NCBI GenBank assembly: GCA_035529895.1
Contig: DATKVV010000022.1
Coordinates: forward strand, 1-64,000
From: Sedimentisphaerales bacterium
GTDB taxonomy: Bacteria; Planctomycetota; Phycisphaerae; Sedimentisphaerales; Anaerobacaceae
Direction of reading: 5' to 3'
Length of the DNA stretch: 64,000 nucleotides
Positions 1 to 21,922 of the stretch are shown here, in pieces (the stretch's first letter is position 1; each line of letters begins with the position of its first letter). Position numbers and translations under genes: made by a program. The notes under the pieces were generated by a model. The model was not told where the DNA came from, ran no database searches, and worked only from the letters and a program-made list of their open reading frames with translations.

Positions 1-90
1 GCGGACACATAGCTGGATGAACCGCTTTCGCCGCATATTGACGCGGTGGGAAAAGAAGCCTGAAAATTATTTGGCTCTGCTTCATCTTGT

Positions 91-888
91 TTGTGCCATA
101 ATTACGTTTCGTTGTTCCGGGTTATTCGGATAGGCTCTAAGCCGCATGCGGAGTTTTATAGGTGGCGCAGGAATGCCGATGGACGGGCGCCGTGGTGCAA
201 ACTTTGTATGCGCGCATACCGGCAGCATGAGCGGATGAGGAAAAAGGTATATGTTGAGGCGAGGCGCTGCAATACATGTAAAGAACTGAAGGGCCGCGAA
301 CACTTTTCAAAGGATATGCTCAACCGGGACGGATTGCGTAGGCAATGCAAGGCGTGTGCGTCACTAAGCCATCGTCGTTGGGCGGTTCGCCAGGCAGATA
401 ATGCTCCGACAGAAAAACAGTGTCGCAGGTGCGGTATAGTAAAGCCGCGAGAGCAATTTCGCCGCGACATGAGGCACGCCGATGGCCTGAGAAGTTATTG
501 CACAGAATGCAATCGCATACGCGGCGCCGCAGACTATGCGCTAGGGTCATTCCGCAAATCTGGCACGACTGGCGGGCCGTCCCTGGCGACGTGGGAACAG
601 GTCGGGCAGGCCGTAGAAGAAATAGCGGGATTACAGAAAATCATAAACCACGAGCGGAGCGCCTGTCTTAAAATCGTACAGGGCATCAAAACCGACCTGG
701 CGGCCAAGATAACCAAGCTGTTAATTCAACAGTCTCATCTCGAAAAGTTAATCGAGCGATTCATCAGAGGGACTCGCCGGAACGGGGAACGCATCGAGCG
801 AATATTTCCCTGTGGCAGAATAAGTTTTTATCGAGGCCGTTTGGAAATCGTCCCAAACCTTCCACATCTTCTTTATGTCGTGGGATAA
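91..888 (+). CDS. Basic multi-zinc-ribbon protein (cassette copy 1). It has at least 3 repeats of CxxC-x(5-6)-F-x-[KR]-D-x(5-7)-DGL-x(3)-CxxC, then a coiled-coil C-terminus. The start is uncertain: TTG at 91, and the N-terminus is shorter than in the paralog at 9215.
   Basis: ORF track. Repeated CxxC pairs are visible in the translation. It is 70-85% identical to the 9215..10045 product. It overlaps the downstream gene start by 14 nt, which suggests an operon. Confidence 0.5.
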   Translation: MCHNYVSLFRVIRIGSKPHAEFYRWRRNADGRAPWCKLCMRAYRQHERMRKKVYVEARRCNTCKELKGREHFSKDMLNRDGLRRQCKACASLSHRRWAVRQADNAPTEKQCRRCGIVKPREQFRRDMRHADGLRSYCTECNRIRGAADYALGSFRKSGTTGGPSLATWEQVGQAVEEIAGLQKIINHERSACLKIVQGIKTDLAAKITKLLIQQSHLEKLIERFIRGTRRNGERIERIFPCGRISFYRGRLEIVPNLPHLLYVVG

Positions 889-1690
889 AATGAGCACAGA
901 GGATATAAGCCGGAAGCAGCAGTTTTTCGACCAGCGGGCACGTAACGAGCGCCTTGCGCCGCCGCAGATTGTCCAGCCCGGCCACGTCGTCCGCCACCCT
1001 GTTTCCGGCAATGCAAAATTATTCGGGGTAATGTCGGCTGCCGACGGCGATGCTCTTTACACATGTCACGAACTCGTTATAGACGCAACAGCCTGGTCCG
1101 ACACTGGCGGCGATAAAAAACTTGTCGAGCTTAACGATACCGAGATTACCGTCCTTAATATCGCTGAATTTGACCCGGAACCTGAGTACGTCGCTCACCT
1201 GGCGTTCGGTGACGTGCTTGTCGGCGTATTTCGCGGAAAAGATGATGAGAACAATATCCGCTGGGCCGGTGTGCCGTTTCGCCGGCAGCATGGAGCGCAG
1301 GTTCGCCGGGCCTTCTGCAAGGCGGCAGCGGGTGACGCGGCCACGATTGATTGTTATCTCGATAAAGACGAGACGGGCACGGAGATTACCGTTAACTGCG
1401 ATATCATCGGCGGCTCGAAACTCAGTGAGGCTATCCCGTGCCTGGCTGATGGCACGCCGCTTGCGGTTTACAAGCTCGCGGACGGCAACTGGTACACTGA
1501 CACAGTATTTCAGACCTTCGATAAGGAAAAGGGCCTCGTAATCGAGTCCGGCAAGCTCGTAGTCAATATCGACGCGACGAAGGGTCTTGAATTTGATGAT
1601 GGTACCAAAAAACTGCAAGTACATATTAACGAGACTGAGCTGCGCTTCGACGGCGGTGAGCTTGAAACAAAAATTTCACCCTGTTCTTAA
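875..1690 (+). CDS. Tail-fibre-like structural protein (cassette copy 1).
   Basis: The C-terminal segment KLVVNIDATKGLEFDDGTKKLQVHINETELRFDGGELE resembles phage tail-fibre repeat motifs. It is about 85% identical to the paralog at 10046..10843. Genomic context is phage structural genes. Confidence 0.5.
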   Translation: MSWDKMSTEDISRKQQFFDQRARNERLAPPQIVQPGHVVRHPVSGNAKLFGVMSAADGDALYTCHELVIDATAWSDTGGDKKLVELNDTEITVLNIAEFDPEPEYVAHLAFGDVLVGVFRGKDDENNIRWAGVPFRRQHGAQVRRAFCKAAAGDAATIDCYLDKDETGTEITVNCDIIGGSKLSEAIPCLADGTPLAVYKLADGNWYTDTVFQTFDKEKGLVIESGKLVVNIDATKGLEFDDGTKKLQVHINETELRFDGGELETKISPCS

Positions 1691-1693
1691 TCT

Positions 1694-2452
1694 ATGGCGA
1701 ACGAAACGATTTACGGCTGTGTTGACTGGGCGACGGGCAAAATCAAGTTTGCACAGGACGCTTGTTATTACTACGGTTGTATAATATGGGAGGGCGTGCA
1801 TGCCGGGCAAGTCGCAGTTACTATTGATATGCCGAATTGCGACGATACTTATTATGGCTGCGTGAACTGGGCAACGGGCAAGTTTCAAGTTGTTGTGCCG
1901 GATAATTGCTGTGAATATCCTCCCTGTGAATATTGCGTGGATACGCCAAGCCAGGTAACTATCACATTTACCGGGTTAACCGAGTGCGAATGTCTGGTTG
2001 AGATGTATGGTTCTGCTAAATTTGTTGGTACAGCAGCCGCGATTAACGGCAATTCGTATGTATTGCCTGCCCGCCCGGATTTACCGTGTCTGTGGAAAAA
2101 GAAATTCACCGGTAATTTTGGTACTTGGAAATGTTATTATTTTACTGAATGTCAGACTTTCGACGACGAAGTGCCATTAACTTTCTTGGATATAGGTGTT
2201 AGGCGCTGCGTAGGCGAGGAGGGAGACGGTTTGCATATCGTGGCCAGGGTGGGAACCGGCTTCGACTTTTGCTGGGGTCCTTCCGTTGGACAAGTTGTAT
2301 ATTTCTATTCAACCAGCGAAGGTGGTTGTTTAGAAGCCGAGATTACAGGATGTGTCGGCGCTGTCGATTTGCCCAATCAAACAGGTTGTGATATTCCGGT
2401 AATTGGTGGCTACTTAATAAGTGGGACTGCTACGATTGTTGAAGGTGGTTGA
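1694..2452 (+). CDS. Cys-rich putative receptor-binding / fibre-tip protein (copy 1). The N-terminal roughly 85 aa are conserved and contain a YGCV[DN]WATGK internal repeat. The C-terminal half is unrelated to the paralog.
   Basis: ORF track. Alignment by eye to the 10850..11599 product shows about 75% identity over the first ~85 aa and none over the remainder. Confidence 0.5.
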   Translation: MANETIYGCVDWATGKIKFAQDACYYYGCIIWEGVHAGQVAVTIDMPNCDDTYYGCVNWATGKFQVVVPDNCCEYPPCEYCVDTPSQVTITFTGLTECECLVEMYGSAKFVGTAAAINGNSYVLPARPDLPCLWKKKFTGNFGTWKCYYFTECQTFDDEVPLTFLDIGVRRCVGEEGDGLHIVARVGTGFDFCWGPSVGQVVYFYSTSEGGCLEAEITGCVGAVDLPNQTGCDIPVIGGYLISGTATIVEGG

Positions 2453-2889
2453 TGTCTTGCAATCAAATTATTCCGCCCAAATTTACTGCCGAACAGACTA
2501 AGGAATGCTTGCACTGCAAAATGGCAAGCGCAAAGGTCCGTTGGTGCGGCCATTTCGGAGTATGGATTCAGGAACAAGGCAAAATTATAACACCACCGGA
2601 GAAAATCGCTTATCCTTCGATGCCCCGAATGGCGGCGAACTTTATGATAGCGGCAGGCAAACATATCGCATCGGGTTTCGCAAACAGAACGCCTGCCGAG
2701 CAGGAACAATGCCGGGTGATATGCGAGGCATGTCCCCACTATGTGCCGGATTCGAGATTAGGCCCGCGCTGCCGAAAATGTGGCTGTTGGGTTTCTCTTG
2801 CAAAACGCTGGGCAACAAAGCCTTGTCCTGAAGGCAAGTGGCCGGTTAACGCGGGTTTAACAGGTGTTGCAACTGTAGTTAAAACATAA
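2449..2889 (+). CDS. Small Cys-rich protein with CxxC, CEACP and CRKCGC motifs (copy 1). It may be a metal-binding fibre-assembly or accessory protein.
   Basis: ORF track. It is about 85% identical to the 11615..12061 product. It overlaps the upstream gene by 4 nt. Confidence 0.5.
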   Translation: MMSCNQIIPPKFTAEQTKECLHCKMASAKVRWCGHFGVWIQEQGKIITPPEKIAYPSMPRMAANFMIAAGKHIASGFANRTPAEQEQCRVICEACPHYVPDSRLGPRCRKCGCWVSLAKRWATKPCPEGKWPVNAGLTGVATVVKT

Positions 2890-2900
2890 GCAAAAGGCAG

Positions 2901-2988
2901 GTATCGCACATAACGCCGAGAGAAAATTGGGCGTTTTGGCTGCGATGTTTTTATGCGCTTCACCGATTCTGTTAAGATAGGCAGGATT
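2901..2988. repeat. Conserved ~88-bp non-coding box directly downstream of cassette copy 1. It contains a short hairpin aacgcc-N12-ggcgtt followed by a T-rich tract.
   Basis: Near-identical sequence (gtatcgcaca..ttaagataggcaggatt) is found at 12092..12180, downstream of cassette copy 2. Confidence 0.6.
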
Positions 2989-3030
2989 CGCCCCTTTTTT
3001 GTGTAATTACCCAACCCCCCTATCCTGTTA

Positions 3031-3100
3031 CCGCCATCTCGTGGGAATTTCCGCCAACATCCGCGCGAAACTACATGTAATCTCACACTAAAGATGGCGG
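3031..3100. repeat. 47-bp motif ccgccaTctcgtgGgaaTTtccgccaacatc...aactaca (single copy) plus its inverted partner agatggcgg. Candidate att, end or iteron site.
   Basis: Strong match to the two tandem 47-bp units at 12214..12310. An inverted repeat ccgccatct (3031-3039) / agatggcgg (3092-3100) is visible. Confidence 0.5.
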
Positions 3101-3621
3101 TGGGCGCGCACGTGCGGGAATACCTGAACATAGACGGCAAAAAGCGGGACGGCGCGCAGCAAACGCGGATTTTTGGGGGACGCGTGGTTAGATTATTAAA
3201 TTTTTTAATGATGGCATAAGTGGCAAAACAGCCAAAAATTCACAGCGAGTTGGCGGAGACTGAACTTTTAAGCGAGGCGCGTTTAAACCCGTTTAAAACA
3301 GCGCCAAATACCAGTTATAAGAAAATGCCCGGCTGGTTTTCTTGACAAAACGCGCGCACGTGGGCCTGCGCGCTTGCTCTTAGAAGTGCGCCTAACAATT
3401 AGGCTAATTAGATGAATAGTGAACAAAACTGGCGGTTTTGAGGCGATACGGCGGTTTTTGGGTGTGCGGGTGAAAACGATTGTGGAAGGATGTGTCGGTT
3501 TTCTTGACAAGGCAAAAAGTTACCCAAATTAACAAACGCTGGCGGGCGGCCAAAAAAATCTTTGAAAATGCAAAAATTTTTTTTCGGCGGGCCGCAAGCC
3601 CCCTGAGCCGTCAAAAAGACC

Positions 3622-3646
3622 AATCTGCAAACGAAGTTTGCAGATT
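3622..3646. promoter_or_regulatory. Perfect 11-bp-arm palindrome aatctgcaaac-gaa-gtttgcagatt. Candidate repressor or operator site in the element control region.
   Basis: Read directly from the sequence. It lies in a ~1-kb ORF-poor region upstream of the head gene block. Confidence 0.45.
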
Positions 3647-3770
3647 CAGGCGGAAGTGATAGGATAGCCGATGATGCAATGGGACGGGCGCTGCCCGGTA
3701 CCACGACGACAATATCATATATCACACAAGGCTATGACCAACGATGCGAAAATTTTTTGCGGGAAAAATA

Positions 3771-3799
3771 TTGACAGGCCGGGCCTGGCGGGGTACAAT
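3771..3799 (+). promoter_or_regulatory. Consensus sigma70 promoter TTGACA-17 nt-TACAAT.
   Basis: ttgaca (3771-3776), a 17-nt spacer, then tacaat (3794-3799). Both hexamers match consensus. Confidence 0.6.
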
Positions 3800-3805
3800 A
3801 CGGCA

Positions 3806-3937
3806 ATCATGGAACACAAAGCACAAAATCCGTTGACTCAAAATACTGTGCTGAACGAGCCTGGGGATTTTCGGAGTGGCAACGCCCGAACGGCTGCTTT
3901 GTGGCCGCATGAGTCCCCAGGCTCGTTCAGTCTTTTT
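3806..3937 (+). ncRNA. Candidate ~130-nt small RNA or leader/attenuator, running from the consensus promoter to a strong intrinsic terminator.
   Basis: The predicted TSS is about 7 nt after the -10. There is a 17-bp inverted repeat ctgaacgagcctgggga (3851-3867) / tccccaggctcgttcag (3914-3930), followed by tcttttt. No plausible ORF fits within it. A good SD (aaagggga) for the next gene follows at ~3957. Confidence 0.4.
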
Positions 3938-3969
3938 CTGCGCAGGCAGAAAATTGAAAGGGGACTAAC

Positions 3970-4317
3970 ATGAAACACAAAGATGGACAAACAGAAGGAT
4001 GCAACGGGCAGGGCAGGCGTGAACAGGTGCGGGGCGTGACCGCGCAGCTCGGCTCGCTCGCAGAACGGCTGCACGTGGAGTGCAGTGACAACAAACGGCT
4101 GGCGCTTGGCTGTATCACGGTCCTTATCGAGCTTGAGGACATATTGACCTCGGATGCCATTGACGGGCTGCGAGATGCGCAGCGATATTTACTGAACGAT
4201 GTTGAACGGGCCGAGAAAGCGGAAGCGTCACCGGACGATGAATCGCTCGAGCGCATACTGGGCACGGCAGAGGGAATCGCCGAGCAGCTTCAGGAAGCGG
4301 CGGGAATCACCTTATAA
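3970..4317 (+). CDS. Hypothetical acidic 115-aa protein, first gene of the head block.
   Basis: ORF track. Preceded by an SD. Immediately followed by the prohead protease, which has its own SD. Confidence 0.4.
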   Translation: MKHKDGQTEGCNGQGRREQVRGVTAQLGSLAERLHVECSDNKRLALGCITVLIELEDILTSDAIDGLRDAQRYLLNDVERAEKAEASPDDESLERILGTAEGIAEQLQEAAGITL

Positions 4318-4328
4318 GGAGATAGTCG

Positions 4329-5090
4329 ATGGACACGGATGTCGATTTTGCAGGGCTGGCTAAGGGGCAGCAATCACTTCTCGCAAAGACGGGGCCTGAC
4401 ACACGGACGTGCCAGGCCCTTGTCAAATCCATAGACAATACCCGAAAACGGATCACCGCAGTGGTCTCGGCGCCCGTTTTGGACAGGGACAACGAAATTA
4501 TAGAGGCTTCGGCGTTCGCCGAATCGCTGGCCGGTTTTATGAAAAACCCGGTTGTCCTGGCCTCTCACCAGCACAAATTATCCGACGGGCATTCCCCGGT
4601 TATAGCTAATGTCACCGCAGCAAAGACGACGCCGGGGGGCCTGGAGGTCGAGGTAGAATATCACGATGAAACCGAGCTTGCCCGCGAGTACTGGGGACTG
4701 TACTCGAAGAAGATTCAGCGGGCGTTCTCTGTGGGCTTCATACCGAAAGAGGGGGAATACAAAAACATAAAAGACTCGCGCGTGTGGTGTCACACAAAGG
4801 CGGAGCTTGTCGAGATATCGTGCGTGCCCGTGCCGTCGTGCCCGGAAGCGCTGTCGAGGTCCACACAAAAGAAGCTCGACTTCATAACTGCCAAGCGGAG
4901 CGAGCGGGAAGATGAGCAGTTCCTGGCGGAGCTGCGAAAAGAGGGCCTGGACCTGGATAAGCTGCGTGACGAGTTCGGGGACGTAATGCTGATGTCGGAC
5001 GATGACTGGGGCGTCGATGATTCGAAGGGGGCGGGCGGTGATGACGAATATGATTTTGTTGGCTTGGTTCGAGGTGTCGTAAGGCTATGA
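4329..5090 (+). CDS. Phage prohead (maturation) protease, HK97/S78-like.
   Basis: N-terminal motif ITAVVSAPVLDRDNEIIEASAF, then VLASHQH and ELVEISCVPVPSCPEA, which are typical of HK97-family prohead proteases. aaggag SD. It lies directly upstream of the capsid gene. Confidence 0.65.
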   Translation: MDTDVDFAGLAKGQQSLLAKTGPDTRTCQALVKSIDNTRKRITAVVSAPVLDRDNEIIEASAFAESLAGFMKNPVVLASHQHKLSDGHSPVIANVTAAKTTPGGLEVEVEYHDETELAREYWGLYSKKIQRAFSVGFIPKEGEYKNIKDSRVWCHTKAELVEISCVPVPSCPEALSRSTQKKLDFITAKRSEREDEQFLAELRKEGLDLDKLRDEFGDVMLMSDDDWGVDDSKGAGGDDEYDFVGLVRGVVRL

Positions 5091-5250
5091 GGATTCGCTT
5101 AGGAACAGATAATTGCCGGCGCTCCGCATGCTGCGATTATTTTGCTGGCGGGTCCGCTGCGGGTCATGGCTCAATCTCCAAAAGAGGGGGACGCGCAACC
5201 AGCGACGTCCCCCTGTTGTGCTGGGAGCTGGCAATCCGTGTTTATGAGGT

Positions 5251-6426
5251 ATGACAATGCCACTTATTGAAGAAAGAATCGCCGCAGGCTTCGAGGCCGC
5301 AGGCGAAAGAATGAATACGTTTGAGCAGAATCAAAAGGAGCTTCAAGAGAGCGTAAATATACTTACGAAGATGCTGCGTGAGTATGGCAGGGCGCTTAGC
5401 GCGGGCAATCCACCGTTCGACCAGGAAAGCAACCGGTTCTGGCGGACCGAAGAGGACGCAAGGCAGTTCGGTGAGCTGGTGCTCACGGCGATTGGCCGCA
5501 AGGCTATGGCCGAAGGTACGAACATCGGCGGCGGCGCGCTTGTCGATGCGACGCTGAGCGCCCAAGTGATTCAAAGACTCGGCAAATACGGCAAGCTGCG
5601 CGGCAACTGCACGGTTGTCCCCATAGGCTCGGCCGCGCAGCATTTTCCGAGGGTACAGTCTGACTTGACGGTATATTGTCCCGGCGAAGGGGGGACGATA
5701 AGCGAAAGCGACATGGGTTTTAACGTGGTCAAGATGATTCCGAAAACATTTGTCGCGCTGGCAGCCATATCGAACGAGCTTGACGACGATTCGATTGTCG
5801 GCTTGGGCGAGATTATCGGCATGTCGATGGCTCGGAGCATGGCAAAAAAAGAGGATGAAATCGGCTTTGTCGGGGACGGGACAGCGACTTTTTTCGGCAT
5901 GACCGGAATCTGCCAGGCCCTGCTTAACGTGGATGCCACAATTGCGAGCATTAAAGGCCTGGTAGTTGGCGCCGGGGATACGTATGCAGAGTTGACGCTC
6001 GGCGATTTTCGCAAGGTCGTGGGAATCCTGCCGGAGGATTGTGACGACACCGCCAAGTGGTACATGCACAAGCGATTTTATTATTCTGTCGTGTACCCGC
6101 TGGCGGAGACGGCGGGCGTCGCAAACATCTTTGAGATTTTAACAGACCGCAAGGGACGATTCCTTTTGGGCTACCCGGTCGAGTTCGTCCACTGTATGCC
6201 GTACACGGGAGCTGCTTCACAGATATGCGCGCTGCTCGGCGATTTACAGATGGGCTGTTATATCGCGGACCGCAAGATGCTGACTATCGAGCAGAGCAGC
6301 GAGGTCAAGTTCTTGACGAACCAAAAGGCAATCAGGGGCGTCGAGCGAATCGACATTAACGCCTTCGGCGTCGGAGATACGAGCGAGCCGGGGCCGATTG
6401 TCGGGCTGATAACTGCCGCTGCATAA
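5251..6426 (+). CDS. Major capsid protein, HK97 fold.
   Basis: 391 aa. It follows the prohead protease. The N-terminal delta-domain-like coiled segment and overall length are typical. Assigned from established gene order, not from a search. Confidence 0.6.
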   Translation: MTMPLIEERIAAGFEAAGERMNTFEQNQKELQESVNILTKMLREYGRALSAGNPPFDQESNRFWRTEEDARQFGELVLTAIGRKAMAEGTNIGGGALVDATLSAQVIQRLGKYGKLRGNCTVVPIGSAAQHFPRVQSDLTVYCPGEGGTISESDMGFNVVKMIPKTFVALAAISNELDDDSIVGLGEIIGMSMARSMAKKEDEIGFVGDGTATFFGMTGICQALLNVDATIASIKGLVVGAGDTYAELTLGDFRKVVGILPEDCDDTAKWYMHKRFYYSVVYPLAETAGVANIFEILTDRKGRFLLGYPVEFVHCMPYTGAASQICALLGDLQMGCYIADRKMLTIEQSSEVKFLTNQKAIRGVERIDINAFGVGDTSEPGPIVGLITAAA

Positions 6427-6510
6427 TGAGACAAGAGCGGGAGCGCGGGCGGCAAGCATCGCTTTGACCGCCCGCGTTCCCCGTGTTTACCAAAGTTAGG
6501 AGTATAAAAA

Positions 6511-6957
6511 ATGATTGAGATACAAGAGATGAAAATGATTATCGCCCTCAGGCCGCAGCTAAAGAACGCCGGGGCCTTCGCCAATAACGCATACTGGGAC
6601 CGTTCAAACTGGAACCACGAGCGGGTATTGTTCGTCGTGGGCGATACCGATGTTATTGTCGGTTCGACTGACACGAGTACTCCGCCGTTTGTCGAGGAGT
6701 GCGATACGGTCGGCGGCGGTTATACCGCCGTCACAGACGCTGCGCTTTCGGCGGTAATCGGGGCGCTCGACGATAACAAGCTGTTTGCTATCGACATCGA
6801 CCTGCGCAAGACGCATAAGCGGTATGGCCGGGTAAATGCGCCGACGGCGGGCGATTCAACAGGCGCAAATCTGGCTATCCTCGTGATTCTCAGCAAGGGC
6901 GAAATCGGGCCGAAGAACGCGGCGGGCCAGGGATTAGCCGAATTGGTGACGGCGTGA
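6511..6957 (+). CDS. Hypothetical 148-aa protein. It may be a head-decoration or head-tail connector protein.
   Basis: ORF track. aggag SD. Position between the capsid and the tape-measure-like gene. Confidence 0.35.
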   Translation: MIEIQEMKMIIALRPQLKNAGAFANNAYWDRSNWNHERVLFVVGDTDVIVGSTDTSTPPFVEECDTVGGGYTAVTDAALSAVIGALDDNKLFAIDIDLRKTHKRYGRVNAPTAGDSTGANLAILVILSKGEIGPKNAAGQGLAELVTA

Positions 6958-6975
6958 CACAGCGCGTAAAGTGAC

Positions 6976-8865
6976 ATGGCAAAAGACATTAACATACATC
7001 TAAAGACCACCGGGGCCGAGCAGACCAAAGAACAGCTCGACCAGACGGCGCGTTCTGCTGAGAAAATCGGCGAGTCCACACAGCAGGCGGGCAGACAGGC
7101 GGTCAAAGGCGCCGAGTGGGTCAAGAGCGCATTTAGCGCTATCGTCGGTCCTTTAGGTCTGGCGGCGCTTGCCGCCGCCGTCATTAACATCGTCCGCAAA
7201 ATACGCGCGGCGATTAACGACATGAAACAGGCTTCCTCAGAGGCCGTCAGCTCGCTGGCTGCGCTGCAGAAGGCGTCCGCCGATTACTTCGAGGCATTCG
7301 AGGCATATTCGCCCGAACAGAGGCAGGCGGCGCTTTTGCAGGCCCGGCAGTTTCAGGCAAAGACGGGACTGCCGATTGAGGCTTCACAAAAGCTGTTAGA
7401 GGCGTACAAGCGGACCTTCGGCAAATTGAATGAGGCGGCGGTCGAGCAGCTCGCGGGGTACTGGCAGTTGCACGGCCAGGAAGCGACGCTCGACCTGGTG
7501 CGATGGATGGGCGCCGAGCGAGTCACCACGCCGCAAAGACAGGGACAGATAACACGCATGGTCTCGGCGGTTGCCAGCGAGACCGGCCTCAGGGACGCGG
7601 AGATTATAAGCGCGCTGACGCGATACTCGACGGAGCTGCGCGGCCTGGGCTGGACGCCGGAAGAAACGATAATGAATATCGGCAAGGCCCTGGCGGGCAA
7701 ATCGCCGCTGGAGGCGCGCCGGGCGATGAGCTCGCTGGTGGACGGGATAAGGGCCTTCACCGAAGAAAAGGCGCTCGAGATGAAAGCGGCGGCGGAGATA
7801 GCTGCTTCAGAGAAAGAGCGGCTGGCCTGGGCGCGCCAGACAATGCTCAAGATGGAGCCGGAGGCGCGCCGCAAGTTCGCACGCCAGGCGTTCGGCGAAA
7901 CGGCTGCGCCGTATGTCACCGGGTGGCTTCTGGCTGAATATCCCGAAAAGACGCGGCGCGCGCTTGAGTACGCCCGCACACCGGATGCCGCCGAGCAGGA
8001 GCGCCAACGGGTCGAGGCCGTCAAACAAACAGCCGAAGCCGGGCGGGAAATAACCGAAGGCGGGGCCAAAAAATTGGAACTGCTCTTGGCCGAAGAAGAA
8101 AAACAGCGAGACGCGATACGGGAATACGGCAGGGTTTATCTTGAATATCTGCGCAGACGCGACCGGATACAATACGAGCTTATTAAAGCGCGTGCCGGGG
8201 ACAACGTGGAGCTGCAAAAAGAGGAGGCCGCCAAAGTATTGTTTGAGCTGAGCCGTCCGCCGCCAGCGCGTACGCGAAAAGAGCTTGCCAGCTTGGAATA
8301 CAGGCAAACCCGCGTAGAGCCGCCGGAGAAGATAGAATGGCAGGACATCCCGCTTGAAGAAAAAACAGAAGAACTGAAAAAGGCTATTAACAAGATTTAT
8401 GACCGGGAAGTGGAGAAAGAACGGCAGCGACGCGAGCAGCGGCAAAAGCAAAAAAAAGAGCCTGTCCTTGACCAGACCGCCGAAGAAGAGCCTTCACCGC
8501 CAACAGCAGCCGCCGAAACACGAGGCCCTAAGCGGATTACAAAAGAGCAGCCGCCAGCCGGAGAATTAGCGGGTCCGGAACTGCCGACCGAGACAGCGCC
8601 CACTCCGGCCAGGCGGGTAGCCGCCGAGATTCCGGAGCTGCCGACTGAGACAGCGCCCGCTCCGGCCAGGCGGGTAGCCGCCGAGATTCCGGAACCGGAG
8701 CTGCCGACTGAGACGGCGCCCGCTCTGGCCAGACAGGTAGCCGAAATTCCCGTCCTGGAGGCGCCGACGCACGTTGTGCACGTTACACATAACTATAACA
8801 ACAACCTACAATTTTTCCCTTCCGTCCATGAGGACGACAGGGGACCAAGGTTTGAGCAGGTATAA
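6976..8865 (+). CDS. Tape-measure-like or scaffold-like protein. It has a hydrophobic segment, long coiled-coil regions and a Pro/Glu-rich tandem-repeat C-terminus.
   Basis: The segment WVKSAFSAIVGPLGLAALAAAVINIV resembles tape-measure-protein N-terminal cores. Three 20-aa repeats PELPTETAP(T/A)PARRVAAEI are present. Confidence 0.4.
   Translation: MAKDINIHLKTTGAEQTKEQLDQTARSAEKIGESTQQAGRQAVKGAEWVKSAFSAIVGPLGLAALAAAVINIVRKIRAAINDMKQASSEAVSSLAALQKASADYFEAFEAYSPEQRQAALLQARQFQAKTGLPIEASQKLLEAYKRTFGKLNEAAVEQLAGYWQLHGQEATLDLVRWMGAERVTTPQRQGQITRMVSAVASETGLRDAEIISALTRYSTELRGLGWTPEETIMNIGKALAGKSPLEARRAMSSLVDGIRAFTEEKALEMKAAAEIAASEKERLAWARQTMLKMEPEARRKFARQAFGETAAPYVTGWLLAEYPEKTRRALEYARTPDAAEQERQRVEAVKQTAEAGREITEGGAKKLELLLAEEEKQRDAIREYGRVYLEYLRRRDRIQYELIKARAGDNVELQKEEAAKVLFELSRPPPARTRKELASLEYRQTRVEPPEKIEWQDIPLEEKTEELKKAINKIYDREVEKERQRREQRQKQKKEPVLDQTAEEEPSPPTAAAETRGPKRITKEQPPAGELAGPELPTETAPTPARRVAAEIPELPTETAPAPARRVAAEIPEPELPTETAPALARQVAEIPVLEAPTHVVHVTHNYNNNLQFFPSVHEDDRGPRFEQV
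8575..8755 (+). repeat. Three tandem ~60-bp in-frame repeats inside the 629-aa gene.
   Basis: ccggaactgccgaccgagacagcgcccactccggccaggcgggtagccgccgagatt recurs three times with point differences. Confidence 0.7.
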
Positions 8866-8881
8866 GAACAAAGGAGTCAAT

Positions 8882-9115
8882 ATGCAGATAGAGATAACGA
8901 ACGATTACAGAGGCCCGCTGGGGACATTCAAGCCGGGCGAGACATACGATTTTCCAAAGAAGGTGGTCCGGCGCCTTCCGACATCCTGTTATAAAGAAAT
9001 ACTTCCGCCTCAGGACGAAGGGCAAGTGCGGGTAATGGGCGGCAAAGAGACTTCCCCCAAGACTGATGTTGCGCGAGAGCCGACGTCTAATACGCCGAAA
9101 AAAACCGGACGCTAA
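8882..9115 (+). CDS. Hypothetical 78-aa protein, using the internal start MQIEITNDY.
   Basis: aaaggag SD, 7 nt before the ATG at 8882. The longer ORF from 8774 overlaps the upstream gene and lacks an SD. Confidence 0.35.
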   Translation: MQIEITNDYRGPLGTFKPGETYDFPKKVVRRLPTSCYKEILPPQDEGQVRVMGGKETSPKTDVAREPTSNTPKKTGR

Positions 9116-9214
9116 CTCAGTCAGCGGGTTGGTGATAGCACACGTGTTCGGGTCCGCGAGTCCCGAACGCGTGAAAATAATCAGGCTTATGCCTGCTGTT
9201 TATAGAGTGGTTAA

Positions 9215-10045
9215 ATGGGTTTTAACGAGATATTACAATCACATGGCGTAGTACCGAAGGTCGAGACGAAGGTCTGCGGCAAATGTCACCAGGCCAAGCC
9301 GCTCGAGGAGTTTTCTAAGAACGCAACACAATCACATGGCCGCGAAATCTACTGCAAACTCTGTAGGCGTGTATATCGACAACACCAAAAGGCCAGACAG
9401 AAGGTACATGTCAAAGAAAAGCGGTGCGGTAAATGCAGGGAAGTGAAGGGCCGCGAGCGCTTTTCAAAAGACGCGAGTACGCGAGACGGATTGCGCAGTC
9501 AATGCAAAGAGTGTGCGTCATTAAGTCACCGTCATTGGGCGGCTCACCAGGCAGTTAACGCGCCGACAGAAAAACGGTGTCGCAAATGCGGCATAGTAAA
9601 GCCGCGAGAGGAATTTCACCGGGACCCGAAACACCTCGACGGGCTGCGAAGTTATTGCATACAATGCAGGCGGTTGTTAAGTGCTGCGGATTACGCATTA
9701 CGGTCATCCAGGCAGTTCGCCGTAGCCGCCGGTCCGTCCCTGGGGACGTGGGAACAGGTCGAGCAGGCCGTAAAACAAATATCGGAATTACAGAAAATCA
9801 TAAACCACGAGCGGAGCGCCTGTCTTAAAATCGTACAGAGCGTCAAAACCGACCTGGCGGCCAAAGTAACGCGACTTCTTCTACGGCAAGTGGACCTTGA
9901 AGGACTAATCGAGCGATTCATAAAGAAGAACCGTCGAAACGGGGACCGTATCGAGCGGGTCTGTGCGCACGGGAGAATATCCTTTTTTAAGGGTCGTCTG
10001 GATGTTATACCAAACTTACCGACCCGTCTTGTTGTGGAGAGATAA
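9215..10045 (+). CDS. Basic multi-zinc-ribbon protein (cassette copy 2). It has 4 CxxC-pair repeats and a coiled-coil C-terminus.
   Basis: ORF track. Paralog of 91..888, with some stretches 100% identical at the DNA level (for example aaaatcataaaccacgagcggagcgcctgtcttaaaatcgtacag). Confidence 0.55.
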   Translation: MGFNEILQSHGVVPKVETKVCGKCHQAKPLEEFSKNATQSHGREIYCKLCRRVYRQHQKARQKVHVKEKRCGKCREVKGRERFSKDASTRDGLRSQCKECASLSHRHWAAHQAVNAPTEKRCRKCGIVKPREEFHRDPKHLDGLRSYCIQCRRLLSAADYALRSSRQFAVAAGPSLGTWEQVEQAVKQISELQKIINHERSACLKIVQSVKTDLAAKVTRLLLRQVDLEGLIERFIKKNRRNGDRIERVCAHGRISFFKGRLDVIPNLPTRLVVER

Positions 10046-10843
10046 ATGGGCAGTAAGGACATAGGCCGGAAGCAGGAGTTTTTCAACGAGCGTGCCCGCA
10101 ACGAGCGCCTTGTCGGTCCCGAAATAATCCAGCCCGGCAGGGCGGTCCGCTATCCCACTTCCGGCAACACGAAGCTGTTCGGGGTGGTAACTACCGCTGA
10201 GGGGGATGGTCTTTACATCTGCCATGAATTGGTCATAGATGCGGCGGCCTGGTCCGATACCGAAGGCGCGGTCAAATTTGTCCAGCTTAATGATACCGAG
10301 GTCACCGTCTTTAATATCGCCGAATTTGACCCTGAGTCCGAGTATGTCGCCCCGCTTGCCTTCGGCGATGTCCTGGTGGGCGTTTTTCACGGCAAAGACA
10401 ACGCGAATAATATCCGCTGGGCTGGCCTGCCTTTCCGGCGCCAGCATGGAGCGCAGATTCGGCGGGCCTTCTGCAAGGCGGCGGCCGGGGCGGCGGCAAC
10501 GATTGTCTGCTATCTCGATAAAGACGGCAGCGGCTTCGAAATTACCGTCAACTGCGACATCGTCGGCGGCTCGAAACTCAGCGAGGCTATCCCGTGTCTG
10601 GCGATTGGTACGCCGCTTGAAGTTTACAAATTGGCGGATGGTAATTGGTACACGCCTACTAAATTCCAGACCTTTGACAAAGAAAAGGGCCTGGTCATCG
10701 AGTCCGGTAAGCTCATCGTCAACATCGACGATACCAAGGGCCTTGAATTTGACGCGGGCGACCATAAACTTGCGGTGAATATCAATACTACGGAATTGCA
10801 GTTCGATAGCGGCGAAATTGAAACTAAACTTGACGCCTGTTGA
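10046..10843 (+). CDS. Tail-fibre-like structural protein (cassette copy 2).
   Basis: Paralog of 875..1690. The start abuts the upstream stop. Confidence 0.5.
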   Translation: MGSKDIGRKQEFFNERARNERLVGPEIIQPGRAVRYPTSGNTKLFGVVTTAEGDGLYICHELVIDAAAWSDTEGAVKFVQLNDTEVTVFNIAEFDPESEYVAPLAFGDVLVGVFHGKDNANNIRWAGLPFRRQHGAQIRRAFCKAAAGAAATIVCYLDKDGSGFEITVNCDIVGGSKLSEAIPCLAIGTPLEVYKLADGNWYTPTKFQTFDKEKGLVIESGKLIVNIDDTKGLEFDAGDHKLAVNINTTELQFDSGEIETKLDAC

Positions 10844-10849
10844 TAGATT

Positions 10850-11599
10850 ATGGCAAACGAAACGATTTACGGCTGTGTTGAATGGGCAACGGGCAAGGTC
10901 AAATTCACACAGGATAATTGTATTTACCGGGGCTGCATAGTCCGGGGCGGGGTTCACGACGGCCAAGTGGCCGTTACTATCAATACTCCAAATTGCAATG
11001 ATACTTATTACGGCTGCGTGAACTGGGGAACGGGCAAATTCGAAGTAAGTGTGCCGGATAATTGCTGTGCAACGACTGATTGTGAATGGTGCGAAGGCGC
11101 TCCGCCGGGGTGGATAGATGTAACTTTTACGGGCCTTAGCGATTATGGCTGCGATTGTTATTACGATGTTTATGGTTATCACAGTTATAAATCTGTTGGA
11201 ATTGATATGTATAATGGCACTTGGCGCGTTCCATATTACGGGGAATGCGCTTATCACAGATTTTCTTGGGACCCAGACCCATTACCCGTATGTTCAGAAT
11301 GTCAGGAATGGTGGACCAACCAGGACTGTTCCGGTATCTATGGCTTCAAACAACATATAAATCCATCTCTGTCGGTTTATTTAATCGAAAGTGGTGTTTA
11401 TATTCAGATGCATTCGTCGAATATAGGAGTAGCAATCTTTCAGGGCACAATAAATTATACCGGGGATGATTCTTGCGGTGATACAGAAAACTCCTGCAAT
11501 AACACCTATACTTTGCCGGGTGAGTGTTGGCAATACCCGCCCGACCCCTATGTACGTACTTTTTGCACTACTGGCAGCGCAACCGTGAGCATAGCATAA
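10850..11599 (+). CDS. Cys-rich putative receptor-binding protein (copy 2) with a divergent C-terminal half.
   Basis: Shares the N-terminal MANETIYGCVEWATGK..YYGCVNWGTGKF with copy 1. The C-terminal ~165 aa are unrelated. Confidence 0.5.
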   Translation: MANETIYGCVEWATGKVKFTQDNCIYRGCIVRGGVHDGQVAVTINTPNCNDTYYGCVNWGTGKFEVSVPDNCCATTDCEWCEGAPPGWIDVTFTGLSDYGCDCYYDVYGYHSYKSVGIDMYNGTWRVPYYGECAYHRFSWDPDPLPVCSECQEWWTNQDCSGIYGFKQHINPSLSVYLIESGVYIQMHSSNIGVAIFQGTINYTGDDSCGDTENSCNNTYTLPGECWQYPPDPYVRTFCTTGSATVSIA

Positions 11600-11614
11600 A
11601 TTTAATACTCATAA

Positions 11615-12061
11615 TTGATAATTATGATATGTAATCAAATCATCCCGCCCCAATTTACGGCGGAACAGATTAAAGAATGTTCTTGCTGTAAAATGGCCAG
11701 CGCGAGGGTTCGCTGGTGCGGACATTTCGGGGTGTGGATTCAGGAGCAAGGCAAAATCATAACGCCGCCCGAGAACATCGTTTATCCTTCGATGCTCCGA
11801 ATGGCGGGTAGTTTTGCTATGGCGGCGGCCAGGCATGTCGCGTCGGGTTTTCGGAATAGAACACCTGCCGAGCAGGCACAGTGCCGGGCGATATGCGAGG
11901 CGTGTCCCTATTACGTGCGGGATTCGAAATTAGGCCCGCGATGCCGCAAGTGCGGCTGCTGCGTGTCCCTTGCCAGACGGTGGGCAACCAAGCGATGTCC
12001 TGAAGGCAAATGGCCGATTAACGCGGGTTTAACGAGCGTTGCAACTGCGGTTAAAGCATAG
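11615..12061 (+). CDS. Small Cys-rich protein (copy 2).
   Basis: Paralog of 2449..2889. Confidence 0.5.
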   Translation: MIIMICNQIIPPQFTAEQIKECSCCKMASARVRWCGHFGVWIQEQGKIITPPENIVYPSMLRMAGSFAMAAARHVASGFRNRTPAEQAQCRAICEACPYYVRDSKLGPRCRKCGCCVSLARRWATKRCPEGKWPINAGLTSVATAVKA

Positions 12062-12091
12062 ATACAAAGTGGTAAAATGTAGGTAGTCGCA

Positions 12092-12180
12092 CACAACGCC
12101 GAGAGAAAAAGAGGCGTTTTGGCTGCGATGTTTTTATGCGCTCCACTGATTCTGTTAAGATAGGCAGGATTTTCGGCCTC
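12092..12180. repeat. Conserved ~88-bp non-coding box, copy 2.
   Basis: Matches 2901..2988. Confidence 0.6.
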
Positions 12181-12213
12181 ATCAGACAATTACCTATTTT
12201 GCCCAAATCCCAT

Positions 12214-12310
12214 CCGCCAACTCGTGTGAAAATCCGCCAACATCACTGTAAACCTACACCCGTCCGCCAACTCGTGTGAAAATCCGCCAACATCACTGTG
12301 AAACTACACC
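12214..12310. repeat. Two tandem 47-bp units (period 50 bp): ccgccaactcgtgtgaaaatccgccaacatcactgt(g)aaa(c)ctacacc.
   Basis: The tandem duplication is directly visible. Each unit contains two ccgccaa half-sites and matches the single unit at 3031..3077. Confidence 0.65.
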
Positions 12311-12421
12311 TACACTACAGGGAGTTATGTGTTGTAAAAAAATTGAAGATTTTTTTGGATTTTTGTTGCACCGTCGTGCATATTGTGTCATATTGTAACA
12401 TATTGATGAGGATGTTACATT

Positions 12422-13090
12422 ATGCAGTTAATTTCAATAGAAGATTTGGCGGTTTATTTGGGTGACTCCAAACGGACTATTTACAAGTATATTGCCAGCG
12501 GCGACTGCCCGCCGTATATCCGGATAAGCGCCAAGAATATCAAATTCGACCGGACGGATGTCGATGCCTGGCTGGAATCCAAGAAAGTAATGCCGGAGCC
12601 CAATTCAGAGTGTTGGCCGCGAGGTTCTCTGCCCTGGACGCCGCGTGCAAAGCGGGTTATGAAACTGGCGGAGGACATCAGCCGCCGATACAAGTTGGAC
12701 CGCGCGGGAACGGGGGAAATGCTGCTGGGTATCGTGGAAGTCAAAGACTGTCTCGGCGCAGGCATACTCAGAAACTTCGGCGTTGACCATCCAAAGGTCC
12801 GTGAGCTGTATGAACGGTTGTACGAGGAAACGAAGGCGGAAGTCAAAAACAAAGCGTCGGGCGAGAAGTCAAATCTTGCGAACGATGCACAAAAGGCAAT
12901 TCGATGTGCCCGTGAGCAAGCCGTACGGTGGGGCCACGAGTACGTTGGAGCAGAACACCTGCTGGTCGGTATCCTGCTTGCCGGTGAGGGACTGGGCCAC
13001 AGGATCTTGACCGAGCTTGGCATCACTCTCGATAAAGTGCGCGCGGAAACCGCAAAGCTGATTGTTTGCAGGCCCGGGCAGAAACAATAA
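12422..13090 (+). CDS. Fusion of an excisionase/AlpA-type helix-turn-helix DNA-binding domain to a Clp N-terminal (Clp_N) repeat domain.
   Basis: The N-terminal ~55 aa (DLAVYLGDSKRTIYKYIASGDCPPYIRISAKNIKFDRTDVDAWL) match the HTH_17/Xis pattern. The remainder has two ClpA/ClpC N-domain-like repeats (AKRVMKLAEDISRRY..GTGEMLLGIV and AQKAIRCAREQAVRWGHEYVGAEHLLVGILL). SD gaggatg. Confidence 0.55.
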   Translation: MQLISIEDLAVYLGDSKRTIYKYIASGDCPPYIRISAKNIKFDRTDVDAWLESKKVMPEPNSECWPRGSLPWTPRAKRVMKLAEDISRRYKLDRAGTGEMLLGIVEVKDCLGAGILRNFGVDHPKVRELYERLYEETKAEVKNKASGEKSNLANDAQKAIRCAREQAVRWGHEYVGAEHLLVGILLAGEGLGHRILTELGITLDKVRAETAKLIVCRPGQKQ

Positions 13091-15276: not shown

Positions 15277-16965
15277 CTACTCGGTTGGAGGCGAATACAG
15301 CCTGACATTGTCGATCCAGGCGCAATTCGAACCGCCGGGTGGAATACCGAAGCGGCCGCTAAAGTTTATATAATACCAACTGAAAGTGTGCTCACCGGGT
15401 GTAACTGTGTATGTCTCAAGAGCCCAATCATCCTCGCCGTCCCATTCACCTTGTTTTACATCGTCAATATAGAACCGCAGAGGATCCCAGCCTGAATTAC
15501 TGGAAACTTTGCGCCAAAAACTAATATGGTTGCAATCGGTATCCAAAGTAATCTCTAGTATGGTTACTTCAGAATTACAAGTATTGGCAGATCTTGCGGA
15601 ATAGCTACCTTCATACACAACATCAGACACAACATTCCAAAACAGGCCTAAAGCACTACCATCCATAACATCAAAAGAATTATGTTGCCAATAGTATTTG
15701 CTGAAATCTCCCGTCTCAAAATCTTCATAAATGCCCTCAAGCCAATGTTTTGCTAAAACAGACACATCATGAAAATCAACTACACAGTCTCCATTTGGCA
15801 ATGGTGCAACATCTACAAAGAACTCATCCTGTAACCAATAAGAGGCCAGTTTCGCAAAATCTTTGAAGTTCGTATTTCCATCTCCGGTAAGGTCTCCGGT
15901 GTGGCGACCGTCTTTAGCAATCGATGCAATCCAGGCTTCATATTGGCCGCTGGGATTAGTCCCATTACCCACAATCGTCAAACCATCAGCAGATATTCCT
16001 GTCGCAGAATTCAACGTCCAGCCAGTGAGGTTCAGACCAAATGTATTTTCCAACATGTCCTGAATACTCCGCCTGCCGTGACACTCATCCCAGATAAACG
16101 CTCCACTGCCAACTACAACCGAGCCGTCGGCTGAGACTGCCATAGCGCTGCCCCCACCTAAACTGACCATTCCTTCAGATTCTGTCCAGCGAAACGCTTC
16201 CGTATGCGAACTCATATGTGCGCGTCCCACCACAACCGAGCCATCCCGTGAGACTGCAAACGCTGTCGTGGCGATGCTCCCTGGCAAATCACCCAGTCCT
16301 ACCATACCACCGGATTCTGTCCAGCGGAAAGCTCCATCTGATGCGCCAGCGCTTCCTCCCACCACAACAGAACCATCGGCTGATATGCCATAGGCTTGAC
16401 TGTAGAATTCCCCGCCCGGTAAATCACCCAGTCCCACCATACCACCGGGTTCCGTCCAGCGGAAAGCTTCAAAGCCTGATGCGGACCAACTCGTTCCTAC
16501 CACGGCTGAGCCATCGGCTGAAACACCATAACCATAGCTTAGAAAAGGTCCACCCGCCAAGTCACCAAGGCCAACCATGCCAGCTGATTCGGTCCAGCGG
16601 AAAGCTTCAACGTCACCAGATCCGGTCTTTTGACTCCACCCCACCACGATCGAACCATTCGCTGAAACACCTGTAGCTTCAGTTGTGTTTTCCCCAGACA
16701 AATAGCCTAAATTCTGCATGCCATCTTCTGCCGTCCAGCGAAATGCTACTGTAAGAAAATGGGACCTGCTTATTCCCACTACAACCGAGCCATCAGCTGA
16801 TACAGCATAGGCTTGGCTAACCCAATCCCAACCCGGCACATAGCCCAGACCTTGAAAACTGGCTGCATCTGACCGTGAAAAACAGGTGAAACTCACAAAA
16901 ACAATTCCAAGCAACACCAGACGGGTTTTAGAACCATCAATCAATTTCACTTTCTTTTTACTCAT
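15277..16965 (-). CDS. Secreted HAF-repeat protein with dockerin-like Ca-binding repeats and a C-terminal beta-sandwich-like domain.
   Basis: Signal peptide. At least 8 repeats of the W(T/R)..xGMxxLG..xG...SxAxG(V/I)SADGSxVVG type (the HAF extracellular repeat). DLTGDGNTNFKDF and PNGDCVVDFHDVSVLAKHWL dockerin-like loops. Confidence 0.6.
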   Translation of the reverse strand: MSKKKVKLIDGSKTRLVLLGIVFVSFTCFSRSDAASFQGLGYVPGWDWVSQAYAVSADGSVVVGISRSHFLTVAFRWTAEDGMQNLGYLSGENTTEATGVSANGSIVVGWSQKTGSGDVEAFRWTESAGMVGLGDLAGGPFLSYGYGVSADGSAVVGTSWSASGFEAFRWTEPGGMVGLGDLPGGEFYSQAYGISADGSVVVGGSAGASDGAFRWTESGGMVGLGDLPGSIATTAFAVSRDGSVVVGRAHMSSHTEAFRWTESEGMVSLGGGSAMAVSADGSVVVGSGAFIWDECHGRRSIQDMLENTFGLNLTGWTLNSATGISADGLTIVGNGTNPSGQYEAWIASIAKDGRHTGDLTGDGNTNFKDFAKLASYWLQDEFFVDVAPLPNGDCVVDFHDVSVLAKHWLEGIYEDFETGDFSKYYWQHNSFDVMDGSALGLFWNVVSDVVYEGSYSARSANTCNSEVTILEITLDTDCNHISFWRKVSSNSGWDPLRFYIDDVKQGEWDGEDDWALETYTVTPGEHTFSWYYINFSGRFGIPPGGSNCAWIDNVRLYSPPTE

Positions 16966-19336: not shown

Positions 19337-19691
19337 AATAGTCCCTTTCCAAATAAACTGTCAAGAATACAGTTTCTTAAACACCCCGGCAATTATAATG
19401 CCAAAAGCCGTAGTTGTTTAGTGTGGGATTTCCCATATATACCTGCTCAGCTGCGCCGCTGAGTCTCATTTCTAATAGAATAGAATATAATATCAAGTCT
19501 ATTTTGAAAAATCAAGCTTTCTTGCCGCTACTCGAAGATTTTCCGGGCAGATACCAGGGCAGGCAAAATCGAGGCATCAAATGAGCTAAGCGGGTTTTCT
19601 TACAGCACGACCATTTCCGCCAGCTGACCAAGAGCCTCGGCCTGGGCGTCCGCGCAATCGACTGGATGCGATTGTTGTATGCCGCTTCCTT

Positions 19692-21464: not shown

Positions 21465-21515
21465 AGTGCGAACTGCAAAACTCTGGAGTGCGTGCATTCG
21501 GCTGCGCTCAGGAGT

Positions 21516-21890
21516 TCAGTGAATAAGAACGGTGGGGCAAGCCCCACCCCACGAAAGAATAAGAACGGTCGAGCAAACCCCACCCTACAAAAGTAAAAGA
21601 AGGATTCTACGGCCGAGTGAACGATTTCGAACAAATTACAAACACGAGTACAGAGGGCTTCGGTGAATAAGGACGGTGGAGCAAGCCCTACCTTACAAAA
21701 GAATAAGAACGGTCGAGCACGCCCCACCCTACAAAAGTAAAAGAAGGATTCTACGGCCGAGTGAACAATTTCGAACAAATTACAAACATGAGCACAGAGG
21801 GCTTCGGTGAATAAGGACGGTGGGGCAAGCCCCACCCTACAAAAGAATAAGGACGGTGGGGCAAGCCCCACCTTACGATTTTGGTTGTTT
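21516..21890. repeat. REP/BIME-like array. It contains GGTGGGGCAAGCCCCACC palindromic REP units interleaved with two extra copies (21594..21671 and 21738..21815) of the last 78 bp of the downstream RAYT gene.
   Basis: Direct inspection. An identical 78-bp segment gtaaaagaaggattctacggccgagtgaac.atttcgaacaaattacaaaca.gag.acagagggcttcggtgaataa occurs 3 times (the third is the true 3' end at 22433..22510). Confidence 0.75.
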
Positions 21891-21922
21891 GTCGCGTATT
21901 TTCCAGTTTTGCAGGGTAGGTC

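Follow-up and report, generated by a model that had tools for sequence, protein, structure and literature searches.

Paired intergenic repeats in a Sedimentisphaerales contig as probable right ends of two tandem Mu-like elements

Described transposon ends and the locus under study

The asymmetric layout of sites described for attL and attR of phage Mu and for the ends of Tn7 is matched by two intergenic regions of contig DATKVV010000022.1 from a Sedimentisphaerales bacterium (assembly GCA_035529895.1). Positions 1 to 64,000 of the forward strand of this contig constitute the window, i.e., the whole stretch of DNA that was analysed. In each of the two regions, a conserved sequence (the box) is followed by units of ccgccaac half-sites downstream of a block of genes, designated cassette A and cassette B. 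With a probability of roughly 0.78, the box and units represent the right-end (attR-like) regions of E1 and E2, two related Mu-like elements of ~9 kb situated between apt and a gene for an HTH_17-Clp_N protein. The two cassettes, so named in a first-pass annotation made from the letters alone, do not belong to one element; each is the right-hand gene block of an element of its own.

The ends share with those of Mu the 5'-TG...CA-3' termini, several repeats of ~20–26 bp per end that are inverted between ends, contiguous sites at the right end, and a left end with one terminal site and inner sites more than 100 bp away; the likeness extends to a probable 5-bp flanking duplication at the E1–E2 locus, a Gam-like protein, and, in the related element L205, MuA-type and MuB-like (AAA) proteins. 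Unlike Mu, however, the elements measure only 7.5–9.3 kb, six of the seven compared (including both E1 and E2) have no recognisable transposase, and a capsid and a prohead protease are encoded, whereas genes for a portal, large terminase, tail, or lysis are not recognisable. Moreover, E1 and E2 abut head to tail, and their site sequences are unrelated to those of Mu. Ends of the Tn7-like and Tn552/Tn5053 types offer further parallels, namely TGT...ACA termini, packed right-end and spaced left-end sites, probable 5-bp duplications, and insertion beside a conserved host gene to which the right end lies nearer; but tnsABC and tniABQ are absent, the sole transposase found in the family has Mu-specific domains, and the cargo consists of phage head genes.

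Alternatively, the elements can be set beside capsid-forming phage-inducible chromosomal islands, which they resemble in size (8–10 kb), in the combination of an HK97 capsid and prohead protease with an incomplete virion gene set, and in a reliance on functions from another element. Those islands differ in using tyrosine integrases at att sites and in having no transposon-type inverted ends, and satellite behaviour of E1 and E2, for which no helper was identified, is hypothetical. Similarly, the ends of the elements match those of a transposase-encoding relative while the transposase itself is lacking (L208 versus L205), as in mini-Mu-like elements or those resembling miniature inverted-repeat transposable elements; unlike these, they retain ~8 kb of conserved, apparently intact genes and are commoner than the autonomous form in the set examined. 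The end design itself is well known; its carrier is unusual, being a compact family that combines head genes with Mu-type ends, usually without a recognisable transposase, and no description of such elements was found in the literature consulted.

Repeat units, junctions, and element boundaries

The box comprises 85 nt (2904–2988 versus 12087–12171) with a gapless identity of 93% between its two copies, and the unit comprises 50 bp, present once behind cassette A (3026–3075) and as a tandem pair of 50-bp period behind cassette B (12209–12258 and 12259–12308). Both features had been noticed in the first-pass annotation, at coordinates off by a few bases, and both are real, as is the difference in copy number. 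The tandem units are 94% identical to each other, and the single unit is 70% identical to the reference copy. Each unit contains two related sites of ~20–26 bp, the a-site (TCCGCCAACTCGTGTGAAAAT) and the b-site (TCCGCCAACATCACTGTGAAACTACA), which are alike in the form TCCGCCAAC-N3-5-TGTGAAA and spaced by 20 bp; the paired half-sites reported earlier at this distance are confirmed by CCGCC starts at 3031/3051 and 12214/12234/12264/12284. The ccgccatct/agatggcgg inverted repeat (3031–3039 and 3092–3100) likewise holds, as a fragment of a 26-bp inverted site. The difference in copy number goes back to a tandem duplication of 50 bp, by which E2 carries the a-b pair twice at its right end.

Exact TCCGCCAAC occurs six times in the window, always within the two end regions, so that a dispersed pattern of the repetitive extragenic palindromic (REP) or bacterial interspersed mosaic element kind is absent; scans of the window with the a and b consensus sequences also returned no sites away from the element ends. 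Within the window, the generic REP-like repeat that had been named as the counter-explanation is thus not supported. A search of a phage collection and of IMG/VR with the box and motif sequences gave no matches, whereas an IMG/VR scan for CCGCCAAC-N12-CCGCCAAC gave ~100, essentially all of them single chance occurrences and uninformative. No Rfam family matched the box or units at the gathering threshold or at E ≤ 5, and a sigma-70 promoter scan of both regions returned no matches.

Cassettes A and B are 73–82% identical in nucleotides, and in 60-nt sliding windows their identity is a mosaic of about 30–95%, mostly 60–88%. The earlier statement that the non-coding DNA is better conserved than the coding DNA thus stands for most of the cassette, but not for the coding stretch 593–712, which at 91–95% equals the box. 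Such strong mosaicism, with one coding patch as conserved as the box, might be taken to mean that the identity of box and units is a functionless patch left by recent gene conversion between diverged paralogous regions. This is highly improbable: the far more diverged relatives L201, L205, and L208 retain the a-b architecture together with the terminal ACTACA, box and a-site stand exactly 41 bp apart in each copy even though the spacer itself (which contains a TTACCYA block) has diverged, and substitutions within the box avoid its predicted stems.

The boundaries of the elements follow from alignments of both ends. The 26-bp terminal b-site of the right end finishes in ...AAACTACA-3', the right regions of the elements finish at ...GAAACTACA, and the terminal 26-mers read TGTAGTTTCACAGTGATGTTGGCGGA and TGTAATCTCACACTAAAGATGGCGG. 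In E1, E2, and L201, the homology of the right ends stops at ...ACTACA, and that of the left regions (L198 position 7735 for E1, window position 3076 for E2, and L201 position 7562) begins exactly at TGTAA, with unrelated flanks. At 3075/3076, b-type sites of the two elements meet head to head with no spacer (...AAACTACA/TGTAATC...), the terminal site of E2 (L1, 3076–3101), read on the minus strand, agreeing with the b consensus at 19 of 26 positions; this abutment, as well as the inverted a-type site at 3237–3257, had not appeared in the first-pass annotation. Right-end sites are contiguous, and left ends carry one terminal site together with one or two further GWTGGC sites ~135–180 bp inward, those of E2 aligning with GTTGGCC sites of E1 and GTTGGC of L201. 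When left and right ends are aligned locally as inverted repeats, a score of 37 is obtained, versus 20.3 ± 3.1 for 300 shuffles, none of which reaches 37. The palindrome at site A (the region behind cassette A) was also considered as a recombinase core or telomere-resolvase-like site and was dropped, the homology of the E1 left end on L198 starting at TGTAA.

Short direct repeats flank these boundaries. GGGAG stands immediately to the left of E1 (L198 7730–7734) and again at window positions 12320–12324, and CTACA, the last 5 bp of E1 (3071–3075), recurs at 12315–12319; the two pairs are probably nested 5-bp target-site duplications, the CTACA pair lying around E2. E2 spans window positions 3076 to ~12314, with 12308, 12314, or 12319 as candidate termini. 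In the simplest history, E1 would have inserted with a duplication of GGGAG, and E2 would then have entered the last 5 bp of E1 and duplicated CTACA, which places the terminus of E2 at 12314; were the terminus at 12319 instead, GGGAG would flank the whole array. Either terminus would imply a 5-bp staggered insertion without a shared recombinase core.

Head-to-tail arrays at one chromosomal site are nevertheless typical of site-specific integration, and the repeats could belong to the attL, attP, and attR of tandem integrations by a tyrosine or serine recombinase, with the ccgccaac repeats as arm-type sites for an integrase or excisionase. Arm-type sites can flank a core in both orientations, E1/E2 and L201 share their position upstream of the same host gene, and homologues of cassette genes 2-3-4 adjoin tyrosine integrases at loci L006 and L009. 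This explanation is nonetheless improbable: no integrase was recognised in the window, nor in any of the seven elements compared, the three junctions (GGGAG/TGTAA, CTACA/TGTAA, and CTACA/GGGAG) have no common core, the TG...CA ends form inverted repeats and are accompanied by 5-bp direct repeats of the adjoining DNA, Mu-type A and B genes are present in a relative, and related elements occupy five different sites. Among the functions suggested in the first-pass annotation, attachment or recombination arms came closest; the repeats are better described as terminal and subterminal repeats of mobile-element ends. Positions of all features are collected in Table 1.

Table 1. Features of the E1–E2 locus, in window coordinates
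Feature	Positions	Strand	Description
3' end of IS5-family insertion sequence inside E1 gene 1	1-137	+	Translation ends ...WMNRFRRILTRWEKKPENYLALLHLVCAIITFR
Right-hand gene block of E1 (cassette A)	138-2889	+	Gene 1 remnant, genes 2, 3, 4
Box A, first half	2904-2954	+	Hairpin TCGCA..AACGCC-loop12-GGCGTT..TGCGA, then TGTTTTTAT
Box A, second half	2955-2988	+	GCGCTTCACCGATTCTGTTAAGATAGGCAGGATT
E1 right end, subterminal a-type site	3030-3050	+	ACCGCCATCTCGTGGGAATTT; aligned with E2 and L201
E1 right end, terminal b-type site	3050-3075	+	TCCGCCAACATCCGCGCGAAACTACA; E1 terminus 3075 (...CA-3')
E2 left end, terminal site L1, inverted b-type	3076-3101	-	Plus strand reads TGTAATCTCACACTAAAGATGGCGGT
E2 left end, inner sites	3205-3257	-	GATGGC 3210-3215; a-type TCCGCCAACTCGCTGTGAATT at 3237-3257
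E2 leader	3258-3670	+	Block GTTTAAACCCGTTTAAAACAGCGC...CAGTTATAAGAAAAT (3281-3327); GGTTTTCTTGACAA at 3335-3348 and 3497-3510
E2 genes	3671-12061	+	p100, p115, prohead protease S78, HK97 capsid, p148, p629, p113, cassette B genes 1-4
Box B	12087-12171	+	Hairpin 12087-12128, T-run 12129-12137, second half to 12171
E2 right end, order a, b, a, b	12213-12233, 12233-12258, 12263-12283, 12283-12308	+	
E2 terminus region	12309-12324	+	CCTACA, putative last 6 nt; CTACA 12315-12319; GGGAG 12320-12324
Host DNA, outside the element	12336-13090	+	Conserved promoter block (TTGTTGCA..TGCATATTGTGTCATATTGTAACATATT) and HTH_17-Clp_N gene
Exact TCCGCCAAC copies	3050, 12213, 12233, 12263, 12283	+	
Exact TCCGCCAAC copy	3249	-	

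Related elements, putative mechanism, and competing explanations

The comparison of the family covers seven elements, namely E1, E2, L201, L205, L208, L218, and L220, which range from 7.5 to 9.3 kb and occupy five distinct positions in the chromosome. More than 700 homologues of the capsid exceed ~50% identity, and the family is apparently widespread in Planctomycetota. Throughout the comparison, two sites 20 bp apart stand beside the right terminus, with inverted copies at the left end. Left ends begin with TGTAA in six elements (E1, E2, L201, L205, L208, and L220) and apparently with TGAAACA in L218; ACTACA closes the right end of five elements and CTCTACA that of L218, and the right junction of L220 shows two 20-bp-spaced sites, yet no TACA terminus was found there. 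The site motif changes with lineage, being CCGCCAAC in E1/E2 and L201, CCCATTT in L205 and L208, TTCTCAT in L218, and GCCAYTT in L220.

In L201, the capsid is 68% identical and a single element copy occupies the same site between apt and HTH_17, its right end consisting of one a-b unit, ACCGCCAACTGCGCAGAATTTCCGCCAAGTAGGTGTAGAAACTACA. In L205, whose capsid is 59% identical to that of the window and whose right end has the same a-b-ACTACA layout, the capsid gene is directly followed by a gene whose 594-aa product combines HTH_Tnp_Mu_2, rve, DDE_2, and Mu-transpos_C domains; a gene for an AAA_22 ATPase comes next. L205 and the transposase-less L208 have a common right-end site motif, and their repressors are 71% identical. 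Because both proteins occur in L205 and neither was detected in E1, E2, or elsewhere in the window, the ends are classed as Mu-type and the elements as non-autonomous relatives. Mu F and Mu gp27 also had weak sub-threshold matches in relatives, as did a minor tail protein.

Two side observations concern these relatives. At positions 14290–14600 of L220, in another genome, a right end is directly followed by a second, 5'-truncated copy of the element's own left-end region (TGTTAACCGCATAGATAAATGGCA...), and tandem or nested arrangements of elements may be recurrent. In L205, ~5 kb past the right end (19460–19640), six to seven repeats that contain TTCGAAA, with a period of ~21 bp, occupy non-coding DNA and may be the ends of a different element.

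From these arrangements we infer a mechanism in which a Mu-type DDE transposase would bind both site types (a and b), bring the two ends of the element together, nick the DNA at the terminal CA, and transfer the ends to a target with a 5-bp stagger. Because no transposase is detected in E1 or E2, the enzyme would act in trans and would come from a related element with matching specificity. That the repeats resemble protein-binding sites, as had been suggested in the first-pass annotation, agrees with their sequences. A more far-reaching proposal, which we regard as possible but doubtful, is that the elements are satellites of Mu-like phages that borrow helper MuA and MuB through matching ends, package themselves in their own capsids, and may insert into each other's ends to build arrays.

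Other roles for the repeats have been weighed as well. The direct repeats lie on one helical face (spacings of 20, 30, and 20) beside A+T-rich DNA, as would be expected of replication-origin iterons; phage-like pac or cos packaging sites would fit the capsid genes of the element and the weak match of a relative to Mu gp27 (small-terminase-like). In Mu, moreover, the pac site is situated within the left end, and end repeats and packaging signals can overlap. Even so, iterons or packaging sites are very improbable here, as no Rep or terminase gene was recognised in the element, the A+T-rich DNA beside the right-end repeats belongs to a conserved host promoter, and the repeats sit precisely at the terminus and reappear in inverted orientation at the opposite one, which neither an origin nor a pac site needs.

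The same host promoter bears on the proposal that the HTH_17-Clp_N protein encoded immediately downstream binds the repeats as its operator. HTH_17 is a DNA-binding domain, and site B (behind cassette B) lies ~110–210 bp upstream of the gene in the same orientation. The gene, however, is a conserved host gene with at least 491 homologues at 55–78% identity; the order HTH_17-Clp_N, small membrane protein, prmC is kept in L019, L021, L022, and L045, and in the closest relative, L019, ispH, rpsA, a sigma factor, and apt stand upstream of it instead. Approximately 28 orthologous promoters share the block TTGTTGCA..TGCATATTGTGTCATATT..CATATT, and neither the box nor the ccgccaac units occur in any of these upstream regions. 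Similarity to the host orthologues begins only at about window position 12336, ~27 bp past the last 50-bp unit, which places the units at the very edge of a lineage-specific insertion and argues against their being the operator of the regulator. Moreover, site A, like the inverted copies, is 9 kb away and adjoins unrelated genes, and L208, L205, L218, and L220 show the same architecture with other motifs and other host genes nearby. Of the four alternatives, all less likely than Mu-type ends, binding by this regulator is the least credible. As an observation on the regulator itself, the ~28 orthologous blocks from across Phycisphaerae (12336–12421 in the window) contain TTGTTGCA, TGCATATTGTG, and three CATATT repeats with 10-bp spacing just before the start codon; the block is likely an autoregulatory operator of this widespread, uncharacterised HTH-Clp_N regulator.

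The hairpin of the box sits 15 nt past the stop codon of gene 4, all six differences between boxes A and B fall outside the two predicted stems (~3% chance by a simple positional count), and a hairpin with T-run and YGCGC, built from non-homologous stems, occupies the same place before the a-site in L201, L205, L218, and L220. The first half of the box is probably an intrinsic terminator, as predicted from its fold, of the element's rightward operon, and its placement would keep transcription out of the end sites and the host promoter. In the second half (GATTCTGTTAAGATAGGCAGGATT), the core ATAGGYA recurs in L201 and L208.

Several points weigh against the assignment of E1 and E2 as Mu-like elements with a terminator ahead of their right ends. 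Neither E1 nor E2 nor the rest of the window yielded a transposase, and no element was found in which a Mu-type transposase and CCGCCAAC-type ends occur together. No 5-bp duplication surrounds L201, L205, or L208, so the evidence for duplication comes from the E1–E2 locus only, where the CTACA pair in turn depends on the terminus of E2 being placed at 12314. E1/E2 and L201 lie at the same site, 57–60 bp upstream of the host GTTGCA promoter element, and this shared site could reflect vertical inheritance or site-specific targeting rather than Mu-like insertion of low specificity. The left end of E1 is on a separate contig, presumably joined to the window through an insertion sequence. As for the hairpin, its stability z-scores (-1.6 and -0.6) are not exceptional, it escaped a terminator consensus scan on account of its 12-nt loop, and there is no covariation for a box of which only two, near-identical copies exist.

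Gene content, neighbouring repeats, and significance

The left part of E1 was recovered from contigs L198 and L199, which come from the same samples as the window and carry P0128, a homologue 90% identical to the E2 capsid. Their gene order runs from host ispH-rpsA-sigma-apt through ~970 bp of non-coding DNA that includes the left end into genes paralogous to those of E2 (protease 81%, capsid 90%, p148 93%, and p629 84% identical). The contigs then break off after the opening 30 codons of gene 1 and the N-terminal part of an IS5-family transposase. The window begins with the C-terminal part of such a transposase, and the remainder of gene 1A follows. GGATAGGCTC in the window and GAGCCTATCC, with which L198 closes, are inverted copies of each other (L198 13990–14129 and window 1–137). 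An IS5-family element thus probably splits gene 1 of E1 after about codon 30, and L198 would complete E1; part of the open reading frame (ORF) listed at 91–888 is consequently insertion-sequence DNA, and several independent assemblies end at window positions 1–15 because the multicopy insertion sequence lies there. The order of the locus would be apt, E1 (with the insertion sequence in gene 1), E2, and HTH-Clp_N, E1 and E2 being ~9 kb each and arranged head to tail.

The gene 1 remnant of cassette A combines Zn-ribbon repeats with a Mu Gam-like domain, and the cassette gave Pfam and PHROGs matches to Stc1/endonuclease VII-like Zn ribbons and Mu Gam. No integrase, portal, terminase, or Rep-like protein was recognised in E1 or E2, and a search of the 600-bp non-coding stretch after site A revealed no integrase remnant. 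The leader of E2 is conserved in E1 and in part in L208; its GGTTTTCTTGACAA copies are possibly promoter-like (-35 elements), and the leader elements may be regulatory or host-factor sites. The p629 protein (629 aa) is tape-measure-like, with a sub-threshold minor-tail-protein match in its L201 homologue, and profiles of p629 and p148 gave no meaningful match among PDB sequences. The C-terminal part of p629 contains three tandem 57-nt repeats (8574–8750) encoding PELPTETAP(T/A)PARRVAAEI, and the E1 paralogue is shorter (577 aa).

The Cys-rich genes 2–4 form a separable cargo module of different kinds of mobile element, because their homologues occur in other contexts without the box, the repeats, or the capsid module. 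Homologues of genes 2-3-4 with 44–54% amino acid identity are found without a capsid module in L006, L009, and L011, those of L006 and L009 being the ones that adjoin integrase genes. Relatives of gene 4 were absent from IMG/VR and from species-representative genomes, and ten metagenome loci with gene 4 (44–54% identity) have neither box nor repeats, nor any consistent downstream repeat. Within gene 3, the C-terminal half (1913–2452 versus 11069–11599) is unalignable between the cassettes, whereas the N-terminal half, which bears a repeated YYGCVNWATGK motif, and the neighbouring genes are 70–88% identical; the C-terminal half looks like a swapped or fast-evolving specificity domain.

Two further repeat systems occur in the window outside the elements. 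At 21510–22532, an array of 36-nt and 144-nt repeats (AGGGCTTCGGTGAATAAGGACGGTGGGGCAAGCCCCACC...) flanks a 195-aa ORF (21923–22510) with a weak Y1 transposase (IS200/RAYT-like) match in the annotation of L017; repeats and ORF together may constitute a REP-like system that encodes its own transposase. At 16108–16813, periodic repeats of ~135–144 nt lie within a 562-aa minus-strand ORF (15277–16965) and probably encode the repeats of a host surface or repeat protein.

Through this analysis, ~21 kb of 'hypothetical' DNA resolves into two defined mobile elements with exact ends, and the downstream regulator is dropped as the candidate binder of the repeats. The locus points to a compact and apparently common family in Planctomycetota that is related to Mu and combines head genes with transposon ends, mostly without a transposase. 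If its members are mobilised in trans, they would be, to our knowledge, the first satellite-like parasites of transposable phages, and would represent a natural analogue of laboratory mini-Mu constructs. At the same time, lineage-specific end motifs within a constant architecture offer a handle on the co-evolution of transposases and the specificity of their ends.

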